A stretch of 43,946 bases of DNA from a virus (Duplodnaviria; Caudoviricetes): the IMG/VR virus record IMGVR_UViG_3300005263_000077, positions 1 to 43,946 of that record; one strand, 5' to 3'. This document shows, piece after piece, positions 3,931 to 42,593 of this stretch. A model generated the notes under the pieces. The model saw only the letters and a program-made list of their open reading frames with translations. It searched no databases and had not been told where the DNA came from. The first letter of the stretch is position 1, and each line of letters starts with the position of its first letter. The translations under genes were made by a program, and so were the position numbers.

Positions 3931-4135
3931 GCTATTCACGTATGTATCTCCTCGACACACGTTTGTATAGTAAACATGAATCAAAGACAAGTGATTTTTT
4001 ATAGTTTTTGAAGCAAGGTGAAAATAATATATGAAAATTTTTATATTGTATTACCATATGGATTTATAATGTTTTAACCCATTAATGGCTCTATAATGGT
4101 TCTTGGTTGGCTCTATTTTAGCATTAATCTTGAAC

Positions 4136-4211: not shown

Positions 4212-4577
4212 ATGGTAAAAGATGAAGCGCTAAACCCATACCTAAAGAACCTCGAAGTAGCACTTGAGCGTATCGGTAGAACGAAGAAATGGCTTTCTCT
4301 TGAGTGTGGCTTATCTGGCTCAGCAGTCGGGAACTTGTTCTTGAGGAATCAATACCCTTCTGTTAATACTGCAGCGATCATATCAACGGTCTTAGGCTAC
4401 CCCATCGAACAGATGTTGAAAGGCGATGTTAAGCACTATCAGCCTGCCGGAAAGTCAAAACGAGAGCTGATGACCAATAAGATTGTTGGAATTTGCCAGG
4501 AACTTGACGAGGATGAGCTGGAATCGATTCAGTCTATTATGAGAGGTATTGTTGACTTCCGACGTCTTGCGAAATAG
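4212..4577 (+). CDS. XRE-family HTH repressor (CI-like, no peptidase domain)
   Basis: KWLSLECGLSGSAVGNLF...PSVNTAAIISTVLGYPIEQML HTH; AGGGG RBS before ATG 4212; divergent from the early operon. Confidence 0.85.
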   Translation: MVKDEALNPYLKNLEVALERIGRTKKWLSLECGLSGSAVGNLFLRNQYPSVNTAAIISTVLGYPIEQMLKGDVKHYQPAGKSKRELMTNKIVGICQELDEDELESIQSIMRGIVDFRRLAK

Positions 4578-10968: not shown

Positions 10969-11189
10969 GAGTGAAAGCTGTAGTGCGATAAAGCTTGGTC
11001 ATCGAAGATCGCACCCATGACGAATGGACTTCTCCCCTCGCCCCGCCAGAATACGAGCGTGTAGTTTCGCTCACCCCATCCATCTTTGCTGATTGTTACC
11101 TTCTCGGCGTTGATCTGCTGCCCATACCGATGCGCCTTTAAGAGAACGACATCGGGGATGTCCTGTAATCCTTGTGTATCGACGATCAT
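10965..11189 (-). CDS. Hypothetical protein
   Basis: GAGG RBS; ATGA overlap with next gene; ends YSFHS. Confidence 0.6.
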   Translation of the reverse strand: MIVDTQGLQDIPDVVLLKAHRYGQQINAEKVTISKDGWGERNYTLVFWRGEGRSPFVMGAIFDDQALSHYSFHS

Positions 11190-11255
11190 ATATACCTCAT
11201 TTGTAGCTTTATAGAATACTTATGTATTGCTTATGATATAAAAACAGTACCCTCT

Positions 11256-11729
11256 TCAACTTCCAGGGGAAGCGGCGATCTTTCCATGTTCAACAAAGCT
11301 GTAGGAGCCATACTTCCCGATGATGAGGTGATCCAGGATCGGGATTCCCATGACATCACCTGCATCTCTTAAGCGTTTGGTGATTTCAATATCTTCCATA
11401 GAAGGTTCCACCGAGCCTGATGGATGGTTATGGGCAATGATGATCGCCACGGCATTATCCTTGATCGCTGCCCGGTACACTTCCCTGGGATGGATTAGGG
11501 TCTTGTTTACCAACCCTTTCGTTACCGTATGTGTCTTGATAGCCTTATGGGCTCCATCGAGGCTTATCACGATGAAATGCTCCTGGTTTCGCCTTGCGAA
11601 TGATGCCAGGAGCTTCACGACATCCTTAGGCTGCTTCACCTGTACTTCCGAGACAATCCTTGAGATTGCCCCGCCGTAGTTACCCTTTTCGAGCATCGAC
11701 AGGACTTCCGATTTGTCAGACTCGTTCAA
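11256..11729 (-). CDS. radC: RadC-like JAB domain protein
   Basis: QEHFIVISLD, HPREVYRAAI, AHNHPSG...PSMED, ILDHLIIG; TTG start after GGAGG. Confidence 0.9.
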   Translation of the reverse strand: MNESDKSEVLSMLEKGNYGGAISRIVSEVQVKQPKDVVKLLASFARRNQEHFIVISLDGAHKAIKTHTVTKGLVNKTLIHPREVYRAAIKDNAVAIIIAHNHPSGSVEPSMEDIEITKRLRDAGDVMGIPILDHLIIGKYGSYSFVEHGKIAASPGS

Positions 11730-11893
11730 TTCTCCACCTCCCATACATCTAACACTCTTTTAAGAGCCTTTAGCTTCAAAACTGACCCAAGAAACTCTCT
11801 TGTACCTCCTGGCGTGACGCCATAAACCTGTTGCCCTTCGACCAGCATCATGAAGATGCCAAGGCCGAACCTGTAGTACATGCCGACTACCAT
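11726..11893 (-). CDS. 55-aa hypothetical protein (not in ORF track)
   Basis: AGGAGG RBS, ATG 11893; stop overlaps radC TTG start. Confidence 0.55.
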   Translation of the reverse strand: MVVGMYYRFGLGIFMMLVEGQQVYGVTPGGTREFLGSVLKLKALKRVLDVWEVEN

Positions 11894-12011
11894 TGGTGAG
11901 ACCTCCTAATTCCTTTCATTAAAAGATTTTTCGCAAAACAGTAAAAGAAAGTAAGCTTAATTCATTATTTGATTATGAAATAATGCAGATTCGAATCTAA
12001 CATTTTTACTA

Positions 12012-12040
12012 TTGTCAATATGGCTTTTATTGATTACACT
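12012..12040 (+). promoter_or_regulatory. sigma70-like promoter for sRNA
   Basis: TTGTCA-N17-TACACT. Confidence 0.6.
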
Positions 12041-12046
12041 TATCTC

Positions 12047-12113
12047 AGCTTATCTACCTGGTGTAGACGGAGTATTCGGAGCCGCCCCTTAAAAGGCGGC
12101 TCTAGCTATTTTT
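12047..12113 (+). ncRNA. Candidate ~65-nt sRNA convergent with the DUF3800 pair
   Basis: AGCU/AGCU closing stem; hairpins UCUAC-CUGGU-GUAGA and GAGCCGCC-N8-GGCGGCUC; U tract at 12109-12113. Confidence 0.55.
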
Positions 12114-12584
12114 ATGCATATAATCTAAATATTCTTGTTGAAGCCTCTCATGGCGATGCGACTCTTCAATGCAATAAGCAGTACAAAGCATATAGTAATC
12201 TCGTCGAATCCCTAAAACGACTAAATACCTTAGTTCAGGGATGTATATCAGTATACGTTCTTCACTCTTTCTATGGTTCTTCCAGATCCAAAGGCCATCC
12301 GAATCATCATGCTCAATGATAGGTCTTGGCCACCTAATTCTTTCACAGCGACTAATTTCAATATTTCTACTTTCTTCAATATCGCCTGAAGAAACCAGAT
12401 GCCAAAATGACTTCTCCTTCCCTTCTGATATCGGTTCTCGTCTTCGATGAACAGGAACATCTCGAAACCTTACTTCATTAAAAATAAAATCATCTTGATA
12501 ATAGCCATAAACGATTTCAAGAAATGTTTCCCAAATTCCACAAGCATCTTCCAAGAGGACCAATTCTGGTAGCCAGTCAATCAT
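12102..12584 (-). CDS. P1 RlfB-like protein (predicted RelE/PBECR-like RNase fold)
   Basis: FWHLVS, RCERIRWPRPIIE, YLVVL...LCTAY motifs; coupled to the DUF3800 gene. Confidence 0.65.
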   Translation of the reverse strand: MIDWLPELVLLEDACGIWETFLEIVYGYYQDDFIFNEVRFRDVPVHRRREPISEGKEKSFWHLVSSGDIEESRNIEISRCERIRWPRPIIEHDDSDGLWIWKNHRKSEERILIYIPELRYLVVLGIRRDYYMLCTAYCIEESHRHERLQQEYLDYMHKNS

Positions 12585-13287
12585 CTAAATCTGCCTTTTT
12601 AGAGCGCCATATTAGAAGATTTATTTTTTTTGCTTTATAGAGGGTATTATTCATTAAAGTGTATCCTGAACGCTCTCTTATTCGTTCAACTATTTCAAGC
12701 TTCCCAGAGTTGCTACTGAGCTGTCGATGTAAATAGCTTAATGCTCCTGTAAGCACATCGGTAAGCTGAATAATGGCAACCTGTTTAGAATTAACTAGCT
12801 GTATATCTTTGATAATGTCCCGAGAAAAATCATAATAGCTATTGCAAAGCACTTCATGAAGTTTCTGAACCCTCTCGCCGCCTCTAGTATCTTTATAATC
12901 GAGGAAAATTTTATAATCTGAATCTGGTTCAAGGATATTTTTTAGCAATGTGAAAAGCATTTTGTAATACCATTCATCATGAGTTTGATGAAACTCAGTA
13001 TGATTCAATATCTTTTTGTCGGGAATAATGACTCCACGAAAATGTAAATCGTCATTATCAAAGAAATAATCGATGATATCGTAGTAGAGTTTATAATGGT
13101 TTGCGGAAATTTTAGTCCACTTCAGCTCATAATCCACACCTAGTCCGTACTTAGCTTTAATCTCTTTTATTCGACGATTTACTTCTTTCACTTCCCCAGC
13201 CGAACACCAGACTGCTCCGAGGACCATAACATCTATACCATCATGTTCAAGATGACAACTTTCATCACAATAAATATTATAACTCAT
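12577..13287 (-). CDS. DUF3800 family protein (P1 RlfA-like, RNase H-like acidic motifs)
   Basis: IYCDESCHL, ELKWTK, IQLTDVLTGA. Confidence 0.85.
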   Translation of the reverse strand: MSYNIYCDESCHLEHDGIDVMVLGAVWCSAGEVKEVNRRIKEIKAKYGLGVDYELKWTKISANHYKLYYDIIDYFFDNDDLHFRGVIIPDKKILNHTEFHQTHDEWYYKMLFTLLKNILEPDSDYKIFLDYKDTRGGERVQKLHEVLCNSYYDFSRDIIKDIQLVNSKQVAIIQLTDVLTGALSYLHRQLSSNSGKLEIVERIRERSGYTLMNNTLYKAKKINLLIWRSKKADLDD

Positions 13288-13293
13288 CGACGT

Positions 13294-13322
13294 ATTTTAT
13301 AGCCGCAGGCCCCTTCAAGCAA
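13294..13322 (-). promoter_or_regulatory. Promoter giving a probably leaderless DUF3800 mRNA
   Basis: TTGCTT-N17-TAAAAT ends 7 nt before the ATG; no Shine-Dalgarno. Confidence 0.55.
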
Positions 13323-13344
13323 GCGAAAACGCTACTTACTGATA

Positions 13345-14655
13345 ATGCTACAGCCCCGGACTCGAACCGAGCGACAACCCTATGCTGTAGCACGGACTAA
13401 TCCTATCTGGATGATAGGCAAGCCCATTGAAGCTATTTGTGGCCTAACGACTGGCCCATTCGACCCACTATGGCTCTTTGGTACTCCCCTCTTCGTATGG
13501 TGTCCCAGGCTAGAAGTTTCCTGCATCCTCTAGACGTGGACTGACCCTACAATTCGCCTTCGCGCAAGGTGAATCGGCACTTAAGCGCCTGACCCATTCC
13601 GACTACATAGCGCCACAAAGTGGCTGCCCCGTCGGCTCGGATCGCCCACTACCCCTAGCAACCGCAGGATACTTCCAGCCTGTTCTACCATACAAAGCTC
13701 TCAACGCTCATCGCGCATATCAAGGACGCTAACCTATTACGGGTATGAAGAGACTTACCCTATTGCATGGTGACAACACTACAACTGTATCCCTATGGAG
13801 CAAGATCCATGCCTATAATGGGAGACTACGGGCTTGCCGATGGCGTGCCAGTCTACGCGAAAGCATGAGCCATGCCAATTTATGGGAATTGTAGCTATAC
13901 AATCCGAAAGCCTATGAATACATAGTGCTTTCTATATATCGATTGCCCGTAAAATTGCCCTATTGAGTGAAAGAAAAAATCGAGACTACGCCCTATAATT
14001 CAAGACTTTCTGAGCTTCCTTGTGCAGCGTGTTTTTTGCCGTTGCCGATGCTTTCAATACGTCGTCAAGCGTTGAGTGTTCCGTGATATGCCTATAGCAG
14101 GTCAAGAAAGGCCCTTTCGCTATCTTTCCGGCTTTCCTGTCGAGTACATAGCCTTTCACGACGTTGAAGGCTTCTATATCACTTCCCGCGGATTTTATGA
14201 GATTCACGGCTTTCCTAGTGCTCGCCTTCCTGCTTCCATATCGTGCCGCGCTTTGCGCTACGGCTTCCGGCTTTCCTGCCTGTATGCTTGCCATGAGAGC
14301 GGGAAGCATTGCTTTCATAGTATCTGCGACGATTGAAGAAATAAGCTTTTCCATTGCGATATTGTCCATATATATGCCCCTTTGTGTTGATTTTTAGGGC
14401 AATTATATAGGCAATCGATAAACTTCCTTCCTTAGTGGTGGCGGGTCAAGCTTTCAAGGTTCGGCAAGCATGGCGCGGGCTTTCTATAAAGCCCCTTGAT
14501 TGAACGCATTTCACTGCGCGGGAAAGATAGGACACTTCCCTTTCTACGGTCGCCCTTGCGTACTAGACTGCAAGACTATCCGCAACGTGTCACGGCTTTA
14601 CGTGACGGCTTGTAAAAGAACATATATCGTGAATCTTTCTCTATCGTTTCACGAT
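13345..14655 (-). ncRNA. Large ornate structured RNA (GOLLD/ROOL-like size and context) with embedded ORF and 3' tRNA-like T-arm
   Basis: More than 12 stems found by eye, including 13495-13524/13664-13693 (25 bp), 13937-13962/14395-14420 and 13832-13840/14461-14469. Terminal 9-bp stem encloses GGUUCGAGUCC. Promoter at the 5' end. Confidence 0.7.
13986..14369 (-). CDS. 127-aa Ala/Lys-rich basic protein embedded in the structured RNA
   Basis: AAAGGGG RBS; ORF bracketed by 26-nt inverted repeats. Confidence 0.7.
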   Translation of the reverse strand: MDNIAMEKLISSIVADTMKAMLPALMASIQAGKPEAVAQSAARYGSRKASTRKAVNLIKSAGSDIEAFNVVKGYVLDRKAGKIAKGPFLTCYRHITEHSTLDDVLKASATAKNTLHKEAQKVLNYRA

Positions 14656-14712
14656 AATATTACCTTATCAGCCATTTAGAATCATGTCAAATGATTTGTA
14701 TCGTTTTACGAT
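14643..14712 (-). promoter_or_regulatory. Leftward sigma70 promoter (TTGACA-N17-TAAGGT) flanked by two ATCGT-N3-ACGAT palindromes
   Basis: -35 at 14690-14685, -10 at 14667-14662; palindromes at 14643-14655 and 14700-14712. Confidence 0.7.
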
Positions 14713-14913
14713 GATTATTGTGAAATATATATCGCCTTGAATTAGTGCAACTGGCATACTATTTGCTCGTATTGATAGAAACTAAATGCAATAGAATTGC
14801 AGAATAACAGGTATAGAACTGCCTTAGATGAAGCAGAAAGAAGCCCCAGGGGGGACTAAGCCACTTGCTCGTGTAGGAATGACCTCTAGAATTATCTGCA
14901 ATATAAAAAGGTC

Positions 14914-14941
14914 TTGACTATTAACGTGAAACGATTAATAT
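14914..14941 (+). promoter_or_regulatory. Rightward promoter with a third operator copy in the spacer
   Basis: TTGACT-N16-TAATAT; AACGTGAAACGAT at 14923-14935. Confidence 0.6.
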
Positions 14942-14965
14942 AGTATAACGCATGCGGAGGAAGGG

Positions 14966-15187
14966 ATGGCATATAAAGCTTCGAGCGATAAAGTGTACGT
15001 AGGTCTCAAGCTTCCAGAAAAAAACTTCACCCTATTGGATACCTTAGTAAAAACTGATGGTGGGTCTCTTTCTGGTTATATCAATGAAGCTATCTTTGAT
15101 TGGCTAAAGGCAAAAGGACTAGAGCCGGAGGCCTTTGTAGATGGCCGTACAGGGAAATGGCTAGTGAAGAGGGAGAAAGCCGAGTGA
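14966..15187 (+). CDS. Ribbon-helix-helix (CopG/Arc-like) regulator
   Basis: VYVGLKLP alternating beta strand, then two helices (SLSGYINEAIFDWL); GGAGG RBS. Confidence 0.75.
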   Translation: MAYKASSDKVYVGLKLPEKNFTLLDTLVKTDGGSLSGYINEAIFDWLKAKGLEPEAFVDGRTGKWLVKREKAE

Positions 15188-15729
15188 GCGCAACACCGGA
15201 AGCCAGTAAAGGCAACTTTGATGAACGTGCAGCAGCTTTCGTTGTTGAGATAACCGATCCAGATTCTCCCAACTTCGGCAATGCCTTAGGTTCAGCTGTA
15301 TCGGCTATGGATGTCACCTATGAAACAGCTCATAAGCAATCTTACAAGCTCATGCGCCAGGACCGAATCAGGAATGAGATAGAACGCATCCTTGAAGAGC
15401 GAGGAATGGGTAAGGAACATCGTTCTAGCGTTCTTATTGAGCTTATCACCCAGAAGATGACCAGGAAGACAGAACGATACAATGCAGATGGTGAGCTTGT
15501 AGAGGTTGTTAAGTCAGGTCCTACCTTCTCTGACATTATCAAAGCAGTAGATACGCTAAATCGGATGGACGGTACTTATACAGATCAGAAGAAAGTGTCA
15601 GATCAAGAACGAGATGTACATAGAATACTAATTAAAGAAGTTATGCGGGAAGCAAGGGATAAGGCTAACGGAAAGAGAATAAAGGATAGTAATAGTATTG
15701 ACGTCGAATTTATTCGGGATCATCATTAA
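15184..15729 (+). CDS. terS: Terminase small subunit
   Basis: FGNALGSAVSA...AHKQSYKLMRQDRIRNEI HTH and IKAVDTLNRMDG pattern; GTG start overlapping the RHH stop. Confidence 0.7.
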   Translation: MSATPEASKGNFDERAAAFVVEITDPDSPNFGNALGSAVSAMDVTYETAHKQSYKLMRQDRIRNEIERILEERGMGKEHRSSVLIELITQKMTRKTERYNADGELVEVVKSGPTFSDIIKAVDTLNRMDGTYTDQKKVSDQERDVHRILIKEVMREARDKANGKRIKDSNSIDVEFIRDHH

Positions 15730-15765
15730 TAATATTAGAATTAATAATGATAATACGGAGGATTT

Positions 15766-16419
15766 ATGAAAAAGAGTGTATACTATATTCTTATAATTTT
15801 ATCTACTATTATCATTCAATCATGTGCAACACTTGTTAGTTCTGAGATAACAGTTTTTCATGATATTGATAATTATCAAAAAGATAAGGTTTTCTGTATA
15901 TTCCCTGTTCAAGAGCAAAAAGGATCTCTCGAATTTAATTATTATGCAAATATAATAAAAAGTGGGTTAACTGAAAGAGGCATGACATTCACAGATAATA
16001 TTGATAATGCAAATATTATATTACTTTTTAGCTATGGTATTACTGATGGAAAAGAAAAGACAGGATCATTACCAGTTTTTGGGCAAACAGGAATATCAAG
16101 TTCATCTTCAACATTTAATTTTTATAATAGAGGTGGAAATACTACAGGTAATATTTCAACGATCAATAATCCATCTTATGGTATTATAGGCACAAGACAA
16201 TATAGCTATACAGAATATGGAAGATATTTATGGATTGGAATGTTTGACAAACAGTCTCTTGTTGATAATAATGTAAAGCAACTATACAACGCAACAATAA
16301 TCAGTGTTGGTAGTGCAAGTAATATTAAAGAAGTATTGCCAACAATGATAAAGTCATTTTTTACAGTATATCCTGGTATAAATGGGAAAGTTGAGAATAT
16401 TACATTAGAAAAAGAGTAG
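15766..16419 (+). CDS. DUF4136-like lipoprotein (moron)
   Basis: MKK + hydrophobic stretch + IQSC lipobox; very AT-rich. Confidence 0.7.
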   Translation: MKKSVYYILIILSTIIIQSCATLVSSEITVFHDIDNYQKDKVFCIFPVQEQKGSLEFNYYANIIKSGLTERGMTFTDNIDNANIILLFSYGITDGKEKTGSLPVFGQTGISSSSSTFNFYNRGGNTTGNISTINNPSYGIIGTRQYSYTEYGRYLWIGMFDKQSLVDNNVKQLYNATIISVGSASNIKEVLPTMIKSFFTVYPGINGKVENITLEKE

Positions 16420-16541
16420 CCATAGTAAGATTTATTGTTCAACCAATTATTAGGATTTAACTTGTTTTTGCATTAGTTTTGCATTCTATGTTAAAAGTGC
16501 ATTAAATATAATTAGCGCATTATTCAAGGAGGCATTATCCA

Positions 16542-17021
16542 ATGGAAACTAAAACTGGAGTAAAAATATTTTTTATAATTCTCGTATTGTTATGGATAAT
16601 TTTTGCACTTCCTCCATTATATAGTAGTGGTGGTGAAAGTATAGGTGGTGATCTGGCAATCTTAGTATTAGGAATCATCACACCAATTGGCCTTACTGTT
16701 GCTTTAACTATATCAATAATAAATGATATAAAACATAATAACGAAAAAGCAAAGGAAAAAACAAAAAAAGAAGAACATGCTGAAAGGCAAATATCTTTAA
16801 CAAGAAATATTCTAAACATTGTTGCGAAAAGTTCAAAACCTTTATCTGTTTATGATTTTATGATGCAGATTCAAGAGACAGAAGATAATATTGAGTCAGA
16901 ACTGGAGCATTTTGTAGAAAAAGGATTAGCAGAGAAAATAGCGAATGAAAAAGGCCTTACCTTATATAAATTTTTATTTGCCTCTTCTGACATCGAACAA
17001 AACGATGAAAAGAATAATTAG
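16542..17021 (+). CDS. Membrane protein, 2 TM + C-terminal winged helix (moron)
   Basis: Two hydrophobic segments; ILNIVAKS..LSVYDF...ELEHFVEKGLA wHTH pattern. Confidence 0.65.
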   Translation: METKTGVKIFFIILVLLWIIFALPPLYSSGGESIGGDLAILVLGIITPIGLTVALTISIINDIKHNNEKAKEKTKKEEHAERQISLTRNILNIVAKSSKPLSVYDFMMQIQETEDNIESELEHFVEKGLAEKIANEKGLTLYKFLFASSDIEQNDEKNN

Positions 17022-17030
17022 GGGGTATTA

Positions 17031-17504
17031 ATGCCTATAAAGTTTAGTGCCTCGGAAAAACTAGCTAGAATAGAGTATATTTATAAGAAGCTGAAACAGC
17101 TAGAAGTAAATAATGGCAATACAATTTCGACATCTGAAGCAAAAGACTTAGCTGAAGAGTTTTTTACTCATTGTTATCATCTTAAAGATTGGATTAAAAA
17201 AGAAAGACCTGATTTACATAAAAGTGTAGAAAAGTATGTAAGTAGCTGCAAAGCACTTTCAATAAGTGCTGATTATTGCAATACTTTCAAGCATGCAGGC
17301 TTAAATAGGAAAATGAGATCGGATTCTCCCATTGAAAAAGTGAATCAGCATACAAAGATTGACCTAACCCCAAGTGGTTTTATTACTTCTGCCGAAGCAA
17401 CTGTCACAATTGGCGATATTACTTTTCGAATATCCGATTTAGCGCTTGAGTGTATAGAAGCCTGGAAAGTGTATTTCATAGATAATCATATAGACATATT
17501 GTAG
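17031..17504 (+). CDS. Hypothetical protein, HEPN-like helical fold (moron)
   Basis: FFTHCYHLKDWI...DYCNTFKH motif. Confidence 0.55.
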   Translation: MPIKFSASEKLARIEYIYKKLKQLEVNNGNTISTSEAKDLAEEFFTHCYHLKDWIKKERPDLHKSVEKYVSSCKALSISADYCNTFKHAGLNRKMRSDSPIEKVNQHTKIDLTPSGFITSAEATVTIGDITFRISDLALECIEAWKVYFIDNHIDIL

Positions 17505-17906
17505 TCTTTAACTTTTAACCTGGTCATTTATCTTGCTTATAAGTTACCCAAAGCAAGATTAAGTCGTATTCCCTCGATTTATACTCGCAATTCCTTAGGT
17601 GCCTTTGTCCGATCGAAAACTTATCAAAAGTGAATTGACACGTTCAGCAGATTAACGCTCTTATATACACCGAGAACCTACATGTGTATTTTACTTATAC
17701 TACATAAGAGACGAATCGATAACTTTCCTCCGTCTCCAGAGGGCTTCGCTAGCGCTCAGCACGACTACGGAAAGAAAGATAGCCAGATTATCTTTAGATA
17801 GAGGAACAAAAGGCCTTTAAGCACCAAGAAGTGGTCAGGTCCACTTTCTCCATGCTCAAGGAGGTAGAGTATACATTTGTGTTGCATTGCAACACATCGG
17901 AGTATA

Positions 17907-19469
17907 ATGACTTATGTTAAAACTCCCGCTGAGAAGCGGAAGTATAAAGAGTTCTTCGAAAAAACAGGGAAGGAGGAGTTAGCGGCAGAGCTGTACCTTC
18001 AATGGAAAGCTCTTACCGATTTGTACTTCTTGGGTGCCGTCATCCTTGGGATGGACAAGATCGAAGATGGGGGGCGTCCCCGCCTCGATCCAATCCTTCA
18101 TGGATGGCTTTCGGGCATCATGGAAAGGAATGACGACACCCTTATCTTGATCCCACGCGGACATATGAAGTCTGCCTGGACCAAGGTAAAGATCGTCCAG
18201 CTCATCTTACAGAATCCGAATATCCGCATCGGGCTATTCTCCCGCACCTCAAGCCTCGTTGAATCTCAGTTGGGAGAGATCAAGCAGCTCTTTTGTACGC
18301 CTATGCTCATGCGCCTCTTCCCTGACCGTATTCCTGAGCCGGGGAAGCGCTTTGTTAATTGGAAGCGCTCTGTTGCGAATGAGCTTACTATTTACCGCTC
18401 TTCTGAATGGGGCCGAATCCCGCAGGAGAACCAGATTGAGGCCTGGGGCGTCGGAGCAACGATTGTTGGCCGCCATTACGACGTCATTATCATGGACGAC
18501 ATTATCAACGAGCAGTCATGTTCGACACCTGAGCAAATCAGGAAGGTGCGTGACTGGTATTCCTATATCCAATCCATCAAGGACCCCGAAGGTTTCGAGC
18601 TGATGATAGGCACCCGCTATCATTTCTCAGACATCTACGGAACGGTCATCAAGGAAGGCTGGTACAAGGATCGCGTCTACATTCGCCGGGCGGTGGAGGA
18701 TGGGAAACCTATCTATCGCTTCTTCACGCTCTCGATGCTCGCGAAGATCAAGCAACGCCAGGGAGCCTACGAATACTCATGCCAGTACGATAATAACCCG
18801 GTACCGAGGGATGACCAGATTTTCCCTCCCCCACAGCCAACATATGCGGTTCTCGCTCCGGGTGCCTACAGCTACTACATGACGGTGGACCCTGCCGCGA
18901 CGGCAGAAACCTACTCTGATGACACTGGCGTGATCATCGGCGCGATCAACTCGGAAGGATTCTTGTATGTCGTCGAGGCAAAGAAGATCCACTTAAAGCC
19001 TGACAAGATGGTGGATGAGCTAATTAGGCTCATCGTGCAATACCGCCCTAAGGTCGTTGGGATAGAGCTGGGGCTTCAGGCAGGGATTCAATACCTCCTC
19101 GACATCAAAAAGCGAGAGTATGAGGAGATCACTGGGAAACCACTACGTTTCAAGATGAAAGAGATTGACGCCCCGCGATCAATGTCCAAAGAAGACAAGA
19201 TCAACCGGGTGCTAGGCGGTGTCGTCCGGGCTGGCAGGGTGTTCATCCATGAATCCTTAACCGACTTACTCCTCCAAATGGAATTCTTCCCCAAAGGGGA
19301 GCATGACGATCTCGTGGATGCGCTCACGATGATGGTCCAAATCATATCGGAATTCACCTCAGGGAATTCCGGGGATGCGCTTAGGCAGGCTGCTTATAGG
19401 CCTGATTCATTATTCGGGATGTTCAAGAAACGGCTTCGTTCGTCATGGGAGGCGAAATTTGTTGCGTAA
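17907..19469 (+). CDS. terL: Terminase large subunit
   Basis: PRGHMKS Walker A, VIIMDD Walker B, GTRY, VDPA nuclease motif, FPKGEHDDLVDA. Confidence 0.95.
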   Translation: MTYVKTPAEKRKYKEFFEKTGKEELAAELYLQWKALTDLYFLGAVILGMDKIEDGGRPRLDPILHGWLSGIMERNDDTLILIPRGHMKSAWTKVKIVQLILQNPNIRIGLFSRTSSLVESQLGEIKQLFCTPMLMRLFPDRIPEPGKRFVNWKRSVANELTIYRSSEWGRIPQENQIEAWGVGATIVGRHYDVIIMDDIINEQSCSTPEQIRKVRDWYSYIQSIKDPEGFELMIGTRYHFSDIYGTVIKEGWYKDRVYIRRAVEDGKPIYRFFTLSMLAKIKQRQGAYEYSCQYDNNPVPRDDQIFPPPQPTYAVLAPGAYSYYMTVDPAATAETYSDDTGVIIGAINSEGFLYVVEAKKIHLKPDKMVDELIRLIVQYRPKVVGIELGLQAGIQYLLDIKKREYEEITGKPLRFKMKEIDAPRSMSKEDKINRVLGGVVRAGRVFIHESLTDLLLQMEFFPKGEHDDLVDALTMMVQIISEFTSGNSGDALRQAAYRPDSLFGMFKKRLRSSWEAKFVA

Positions 19470-42433: not shown

Positions 42434-42506
42434 GTCTCACAGAATAGGATAATGCAGTTGTTTTATCACTTTCACTCTCGATTTCTAATATATTTGGAAC
42501 CATGAT

Positions 42507-42558
42507 AACCACTCTAGCTAAGACTTGAGTTGTCACCCAAGTCTTGGCTAGAGTGGTT
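42507..42558. repeat. 21-bp inverted repeat between convergent genes
   Basis: AACCACTCTAGCTAAGACTTG-N10-CAAGTCTTGGCTAGAGTGGTT, one mismatch (G-U compatible). Confidence 0.85.
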
Positions 42559-42593
42559 CTAAAGTCGAATTAGAACTGCTATCGAGAAAAATA

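Follow-up and report, generated by a model that had tools for sequence, protein, structure and literature searches.

Why is a protein-coding gene held between the two arms of a long inverted repeat, in the middle of what appears to be a large structured phage RNA? The window, which is the whole 43,946-nucleotide stretch of DNA that we analysed, is a complete 44-kb provirus in which two gene blocks diverge at this RNA/ORF locus. The plus strand carries P22-like portal, terminase and structural genes, and the minus strand carries radC, ArdC, MmeI-type enzyme, Sak4, SSB, Gam-like, replication and integrase genes. The original prediction was that the gene is looped out of the RNA on a 26-bp stem, either as a self-encoded binding partner or as exchangeable cargo. 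The parts of the locus, from 5' to 3' on the minus strand, are as follows.

14435-14618, minus strand: 5' RNA domain, with a conserved first hairpin and a closing helix around a variable interior, in three main types (two-sided changes in the closing helix and first hairpin)
14395-14420, minus strand: arm 1, with two alternative pairing partners: arm 2, or the ribosome-binding site plus start codon of the ORF
14377-14381, minus strand: ribosome-binding site AGGGG (from the sequence; G-rich in 17/17 aligned loci)
13986-14369, minus strand: ORF for a 127-aa basic protein with no family match, modeled as an N-terminal helix, a variable linker and a compact helical C-terminal domain
13937-13962, minus strand: arm 2, located 23 nt 3' of the stop codon
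13346-13932, minus strand: multi-branched 3' RNA domain of ~590 nt with seven optional-module sites (folding z of -5.7 and covariation)
13346-13392, minus strand: tRNA-like 3' end, with an acceptor-like stem and a T-arm with a TTCRA loop, and no anticodon arm (helices of the covarying domain)

Since the annotation of an uncultured Spirochaetota genome includes a homologue of the 127-aa protein and the sole chromosomal piece of the RNA (locus L067) sits in a Spirochaetes MAG, the host group of the provirus is likely Spirochaetota. Using the 127-aa protein as the query for the metagenome search, we found 17 metagenome loci; the protein also matched 10 viral loci, and RNA motifs added one viral contig. 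The arms were counted in 26 loci, a set without L001, which is identical to the window, and L006, whose matches are those of L005. Many of the 26 loci are near-duplicates, and there are 17 distinct intact ORFs including that of the window.

As had been noted, the two arms match at 23 of 26 positions and are separated by 432 nt. When positions 11001-18000 were dinucleotide-shuffled 100 times, the highest score for a 26-nt inverted match was 21/26, and in the whole window only one other 23/26 pair within 1 kb was found, at 42505-42560, where it forms a local hairpin. The 26-bp inverted repeat is thus far above chance. Read as minus-strand RNA, the three mismatched positions become U-G, A-C and U-U, so that 24/26 positions can pair. 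Arm 1 was present in 26/26 loci and arm 2 in 25/26, the remaining locus coming from a contig that stops within the ORF, and all 26 loci were colinear and in the same orientation. The arms were 96% identical among homologues, compared with 59% at third codon positions. Two-sided changes were found at 6/30 stem pairs, a number reached by 0/500 shuffles; five of the six came from one locus (L044), in the outer stem. The variation includes a 5-bp compensatory block. Eighteen of the 30 pairs never varied, and three inner pairs varied through G-U on the minus strand. At the A-C position, which would be G-U on the other strand, the arms kept distinct letters in 17/17 loci. Because the arm variation keeps minus-strand pairing through G-U wobbles and one compensatory block, the inverted repeat is best read, from its pattern of change, as an RNA stem and not as an inversion site. 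The check that accompanied the original prediction, conservation and covariation of the repeat, came out in its favor, with the arms kept in every complete locus and covariation beyond 500 shuffles.

The 3' domain gave a folding z similar in size on its other strand (-5.3), and the ORF gave +0.9. Two-sided changes were found at 25 of its 132 consensus pairs, and G-U cells outnumbered A-C cells on the minus strand (335 vs 38), compared with 132 vs 128 on the plus strand. The window copy of the 5' domain alone folded no better than shuffles (z of -0.55). The central claim, in which an RNA stem loops out the gene and has a structured RNA domain on either side, was supported by covariation in the stem and its flanks. 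A further claim, that pairing continues across the ORF between 14461-14474 and 13832-13875, did not generalize: the helix forms in the window but in only 4/15 homologues (-13 to -17 kcal/mol, against -2 to -6 kcal/mol in the other 11), and its occurrence goes with a single type of 5' domain. Besides the stem, the 5' and 3' flanks were linked by no conserved helix of more than 6 bp, a length to be expected by chance. Since only the stem joins the two domains by conserved pairing, they may not be one folded RNA.

The Rfam search, with families including introns and rRNA, gave no match for the RNA element, and no description of it was found in the article text covered by the literature search. 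Likenesses to group I/II intron, RNase P, SRP, 23S rRNA and sigma-54 motifs, compared by eye, were rejected, as the matching words vary among homologues or are without partners. Each of the seven module sites in the 3' domain is occupied in 1 to 8 loci by an optional module of 30 to 44 nt, which is made of two adjacent hairpins and often led by TAG or GTAG; a module also follows the stop codon in 10/17 loci, the window has none, and nearly the same module can occupy two sites of one RNA. These modules may resemble GTAG-type REP elements.

On the 3' side, the RNA is followed by a slot for other genes.

12102-13287, minus strand: variable cargo slot after the RNA, holding DUF3800 and a 160-aa gene in the window; not a fixed part of the element

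In other loci the slot holds an OLD-like ATPase, GmrSD, HATPase, DUF6119 or other genes, and in L034 it holds no ORF of at least 70 aa. The genes in this slot are often defence-like. A DUF3800-associated RNA motif was rejected as an identity for the element, since other genes fill the slot in homologues and no Rfam match was obtained. After the DUF3800 cassette, a GC-rich hairpin at 12078-12103 looks like a terminator on the plus strand but not on the minus strand. A second variable slot, which is AT-rich, lies at 15766-17504, between the small and large terminase genes, and contains a DUF4136-like gene and two others. The tRNA-like end of the RNA, which received no ARAGORN call, adjoins the cargo slot and is replaced by other sequence in L005, L007 and L010; in L067, two such hairpins (4030-4070 and 4468-4550) bracket a 111-aa gene. 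Their position beside the slot, their loss in three loci and their placement around the L067 gene suggest that these hairpins are an insertion hotspot or a processing signal.

The ORF was as Lys/Ala-rich as described (14 Lys, 21 Ala, pI 9.8), and both the ORF and its ribosome-binding site lie inside the inverted repeat. Among the 17 distinct intact ORFs, window included, that were left after near-duplicates were set aside, the median dN/dS was 0.16 over 135/136 pairs, indicating purifying selection; the L049 ORF has a 10-nt frameshifting deletion. The homologues share an invariant RK-G-x-GPF-x-CYRH core, and the pI was 9.6-9.9 in the six that were checked. The protein model contained a long helix, a disordered linker and a confident helical domain of 72 residues. 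In agreement with the original prediction, the ORF had no family match to a reverse transcriptase, endonuclease or transposase. Pfam gave no S23p match for the 19 protein members at E<=1, and fold searches gave nothing above noise (best Z 4.4); the structure-prediction check that had been suggested thus yielded no clear fold match and no known RNA-binding family or fold. No longer fusion of the protein was found, which is a weak test. The protein was found only at this position among the loci searched. A second in-frame ATG at codon 6 (14352-14354) is the start used in two database homologues, and the first codons of the ORF are unusually conserved at the DNA level. The word AAGCCG occurs six times in the unit (14134-14611, minus strand) against ~0.5 expected, twice in the first hairpin and four times in the ORF, and TAGTCT occurs three times on the minus strand of 14134-14611.

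A second complementarity of arm 1, absent from the original prediction and new here, extends over the ORF's ribosome-binding site, start codon and first codons. In 18/18 loci folded, the predicted nascent leader placed arm 1 on this start region, which was the best partner of arm 1 within the loop in 13/17 loci. The pairing beat shuffled arms at p<0.05 in 16/17 loci, which are not independent of each other. The duplex energy of arm 1 was -14 to -21 kcal/mol with the start region and -29 to -37 kcal/mol with arm 2. In the window, the predicted openness of the start region rose from 0.30 to 0.63 when arm 2 was present; with the whole ORF included, the gain was negligible in 4/18 loci. Since no two-sided change was found in a fixed register, the case for the start-covering hairpin is one of energy and conservation, and the AT-rich arm may pair with the AT-rich start by composition. 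A triple pairing duty would explain the near-lack of change in the arms.

Our preferred interpretation, which we hold tentatively and place a little short of probable, is that the stem is both a translation switch and a processing site acting on the looped-out gene in a predicted 1.3-kb phage transcript. In the nascent transcript, arm 1 would cover the ribosome-binding site and start codon. Arm 2, transcribed after the stop codon, would then capture arm 1, and the translation start would be freed; this folding order, first on the start region and then on arm 2, is the one that the modeled energies point to. Host RNase III would cut the finished stem and release the message. The cut would fall near the central A-C and U-U mismatches: ~10 bp would close the released message, and ~14 bp would hold the 5' and 3' domains together as a two-piece RNA. 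The suggestion that the stem could be an RNase III site is in keeping with its size and with the enzyme being encoded by the likely host group (5/5 spirochaete genomes checked).

It is possible, if doubtful, that the protein is a dedicated partner of the RNA that encodes it, the stem keeping both on one transcript to yield a ribonucleoprotein, a reading compatible with the switch and processing roles of the stem. The basic pI and the invariant core described above are consistent with such a partner, as is the confinement of the protein to this position and its co-inheritance with the 3' domain (Spearman 0.82 for the ORF and 0.18 for the promoter module). However, any neighboring gene would show linkage, DNA or RNA polymerase would be just as plausible a target for a basic phage protein, and there was no similarity to a known RNA-binding family or fold. 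The full combination, a new class of large phage RNA in which the gene for the RNA's protein partner would sit in a removable loop, with translation licensed by the complete gene, release by RNase III and a two-piece RNA plus protein particle, we consider unlikely.

The proposed switch presupposes a transcript that runs through the whole unit, and upstream of the 5' domain we found the following.

14662-14690, minus strand: predicted sigma-70 promoter (from the sequence), with TTGACA at 14690-14685, a 17-nt spacer and TAAGGT at 14667-14662
14643-14655, no strand assigned: operator-like palindrome over the predicted transcription start (from the sequence)
14700-14712, no strand assigned: upstream operator-like palindrome ATCG-N5-CGAT; the 44-kb window has two occurrences of this pattern, both at the promoter above
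14966-15187, plus strand: divergent 73-aa gene, likely for a ribbon-helix-helix repressor (RHH_1 as the lead in 38% of one cluster, score 0.94)

The TTGAC word was invariant in 17/17 aligned loci, and the -10 element kept A2 and T6 at a spacer of 17 or 18 nt. The consensus promoter scan did not report the promoter at 14662-14690. The sequence of the N-terminal strand of the 73-aa protein tracks the operator type among homologues, and the 73-aa protein is likely a ribbon-helix-helix repressor of this promoter. Much like an immunity module, the repressor and operator types (14643-15187) change in step with each other and are exchanged independently of the RNA. Within the RNA/ORF unit we found no terminator-like site, nor did we find a minus-strand terminator between the promoter and position 11800. 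We infer that one transcript, from ~14655 to 13346, would be made when the divergent repressor is lifted.

The same arrangement could be that of an early lytic operon leader with antitermination, in which the protein takes the place of lambda N and the two-hairpin modules act like HK022 put; we regard this as decidedly unlikely. The gene is the first after the repressor-controlled promoter and lies upstream of the same-strand radC, ArdC, methyltransferase, Sak4, SSB, Gam-like and replication genes. The lambda N leader has an RNase III stem, which we counted for antitermination. In the available text of PMC8632103, put is a double hairpin of ~65 nt. The lambda pL-N leader and HK022 put resemble the present locus in having a repressed early promoter ahead of recombination genes, with RNA structure and a basic first gene behind it. 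However, the modules here are optional, shorter (30 to 44 nt) and missing from the window, the protein has no arginine-rich motif, there was no minus-strand terminator as far as 11800, and TTGACA sites precede the downstream genes. Unlike the lambda and HK022 elements, the RNA is far larger, with 590 nt of conserved branched structure that exceeds known put or nut elements, its stem encloses the whole ORF, and there is no sequence or family similarity.

The arms could also act as DNA, either as facing protein-binding sites or as -10 elements, with arm 1 serving as an internal promoter for the ORF and arm 2 as an antisense promoter. Each arm contains a TAnAAT hexamer with variation at position 3, the hexamer of arm 1 stands 7 nt before a leader of 22 to 30 nt, and near-invariance would suit a binding site. 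On the other hand, no -35 element stands at the right distance, the promoter scan gave no match, and the variation of the arms prefers G-U on one strand and includes the 5-bp compensatory block, which makes a DNA role improbable.

We consider it very improbable that the ORF is an intervening sequence that moves or can be exchanged, with ORF-free forms of the RNA existing alongside. The architecture is like that of a 23S intervening sequence, the ORF of L049 is frameshifted, and L067 has a piece of ~200 nt of the 3' domain without the ORF; however, in L067 the 5' domain and the arms are missing too, along with much of the 3' domain, selection on the ORF is strongly purifying, and the scans turned up no intact RNA that was ORF-free or had different cargo. 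The IMG/VR motif scans for ORF-free or other-cargo alleles returned the same 11 contigs and chance matches, and a profile test of 151 loci among the matches listed revealed no new homologue, the list of one scan, which covered 13 of 64 parts, being mostly portal genes. Of 34 matches in GTDB, only L067 was homologous. The repressor alignment search gave the same 11 contigs and one weak match (L274), and 401 phylum, 69 family and 301 order genomes yielded only G001. Annotated phages and plasmids gave no match. One protein, P0020, is a distant homologue (48%), and P0021 was discarded as a repeat artefact. The exchangeable cargo of the original prediction was therefore not supported by comparison across homologous loci: the same ORF was found wherever both arms were present, and it was co-inherited with the 3' domain. 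Within the sequences searched, the unit of RNA and protein gene is known so far from one phage clade.

An invertible DNA switch between the repeats, the alternative named originally, has repeats of invertase-site size (26 bp) in its favor but is exceedingly improbable, given one orientation in 26/26 loci examined, distinct arm letters at the A-C position in 17/17, no strand-changing joint in contigs of six DNA-type runs (contigs drop rare forms), and no invertase, only an integrase, among the 51 distinct window ORFs scanned.

The preferred interpretation, a stem that switches and processes the looped-out gene, can be compared with known systems. The nearest design to the predicted processing stem is the Coxiella 23S intervening sequence, which in the available text of PMC4990558 has 428 nt, a 28-bp terminal stem and an RNase III cut in mid-stem. 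As in the 23S intervening sequences with an S23p ORF described there for Coxiella and Leptospira, the phage locus has an ORF loop of ~430 nt on a near-perfect stem of 26 to 28 bp within a larger structured RNA, and what is left of the stem after an RNase III cut could keep the RNA pieces joined. A stem of ~28 bp made by terminal inverted repeats, by which 23S intervening sequences are recognized, was present here. Unlike those sequences, the locus lies in a phage RNA with no rRNA match, and the protein does not match the S23p family, its model being a long helix, a linker and a small helical domain, not a four-helix bundle. It also differs in the good ribosome-binding site within the loop, the purifying selection, the lack of a known ORF-free allele and the predicted second role of arm 1 as an anti-start element.

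In overall build the element is closer to GOLLD and ROOL, which, as far as the available texts of 10.1101/2024.12.08.627333, PMC12990946 and PMC5737381 describe them, are likewise large multi-branched prophage RNAs with optional peripheral stems, a variable 5' domain, a conserved 3' domain and a linker that can carry another gene; according to the same texts, the variable linker of GOLLD can hold tRNAs. Unlike in GOLLD and ROOL, the linker here encodes a protein and the domain sizes differ. GOLLD RNAs are located in prophages, often near tRNA genes; the element here lies in a provirus, and no tRNA gene was found in the window (ARAGORN) or in 12 loci. GOLLD (RF02032) gave no 3'-domain model match at E<=10 in the window genome, and the ROOL (RF03087) covariance model gave no match in the searches, one of which was run without a positive control. 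The type I toxin mRNA AapA3, in the available text of 10.1101/615682, also forms a co-transcriptional start-covering hairpin that is later replaced by long-range 5'-3' pairing, as is predicted here. The outcome is opposite, since the long-range pairing here is predicted to free the start, and no antisense RNA or small membrane toxin of the type I kind was seen. A group I/II intron with an encoded protein was rejected, there being no Rfam intron match and no reverse transcriptase or homing-endonuclease family in the ORF, and a by-eye motif comparison with the consensus failed to find a group I/II catalytic core. In sum, the element would resemble an intervening sequence in its working and resembles GOLLD in its build, but it does not qualify as a member of either.

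To our knowledge, GOLLD and ROOL rank with the largest RNAs of bacteria, and neither is known to have a function. For ROOL, no protein partner is known according to the available text of 10.1101/2024.12.08.627333. What is new here, as judged from the sequence comparisons, is a large RNA of prophages whose linker contains a protein gene under selection. Such a gene, built into the linker of the RNA, provides a direct handle: a candidate partner, a defined predicted promoter with its repressor and a testable processing site. If the proposed mechanism is true, the design of the intervening sequence would extend beyond rRNA, and the unlocking of the start by arm 2 only after the stop codon has been transcribed would be an unusual full-length checkpoint for translation.
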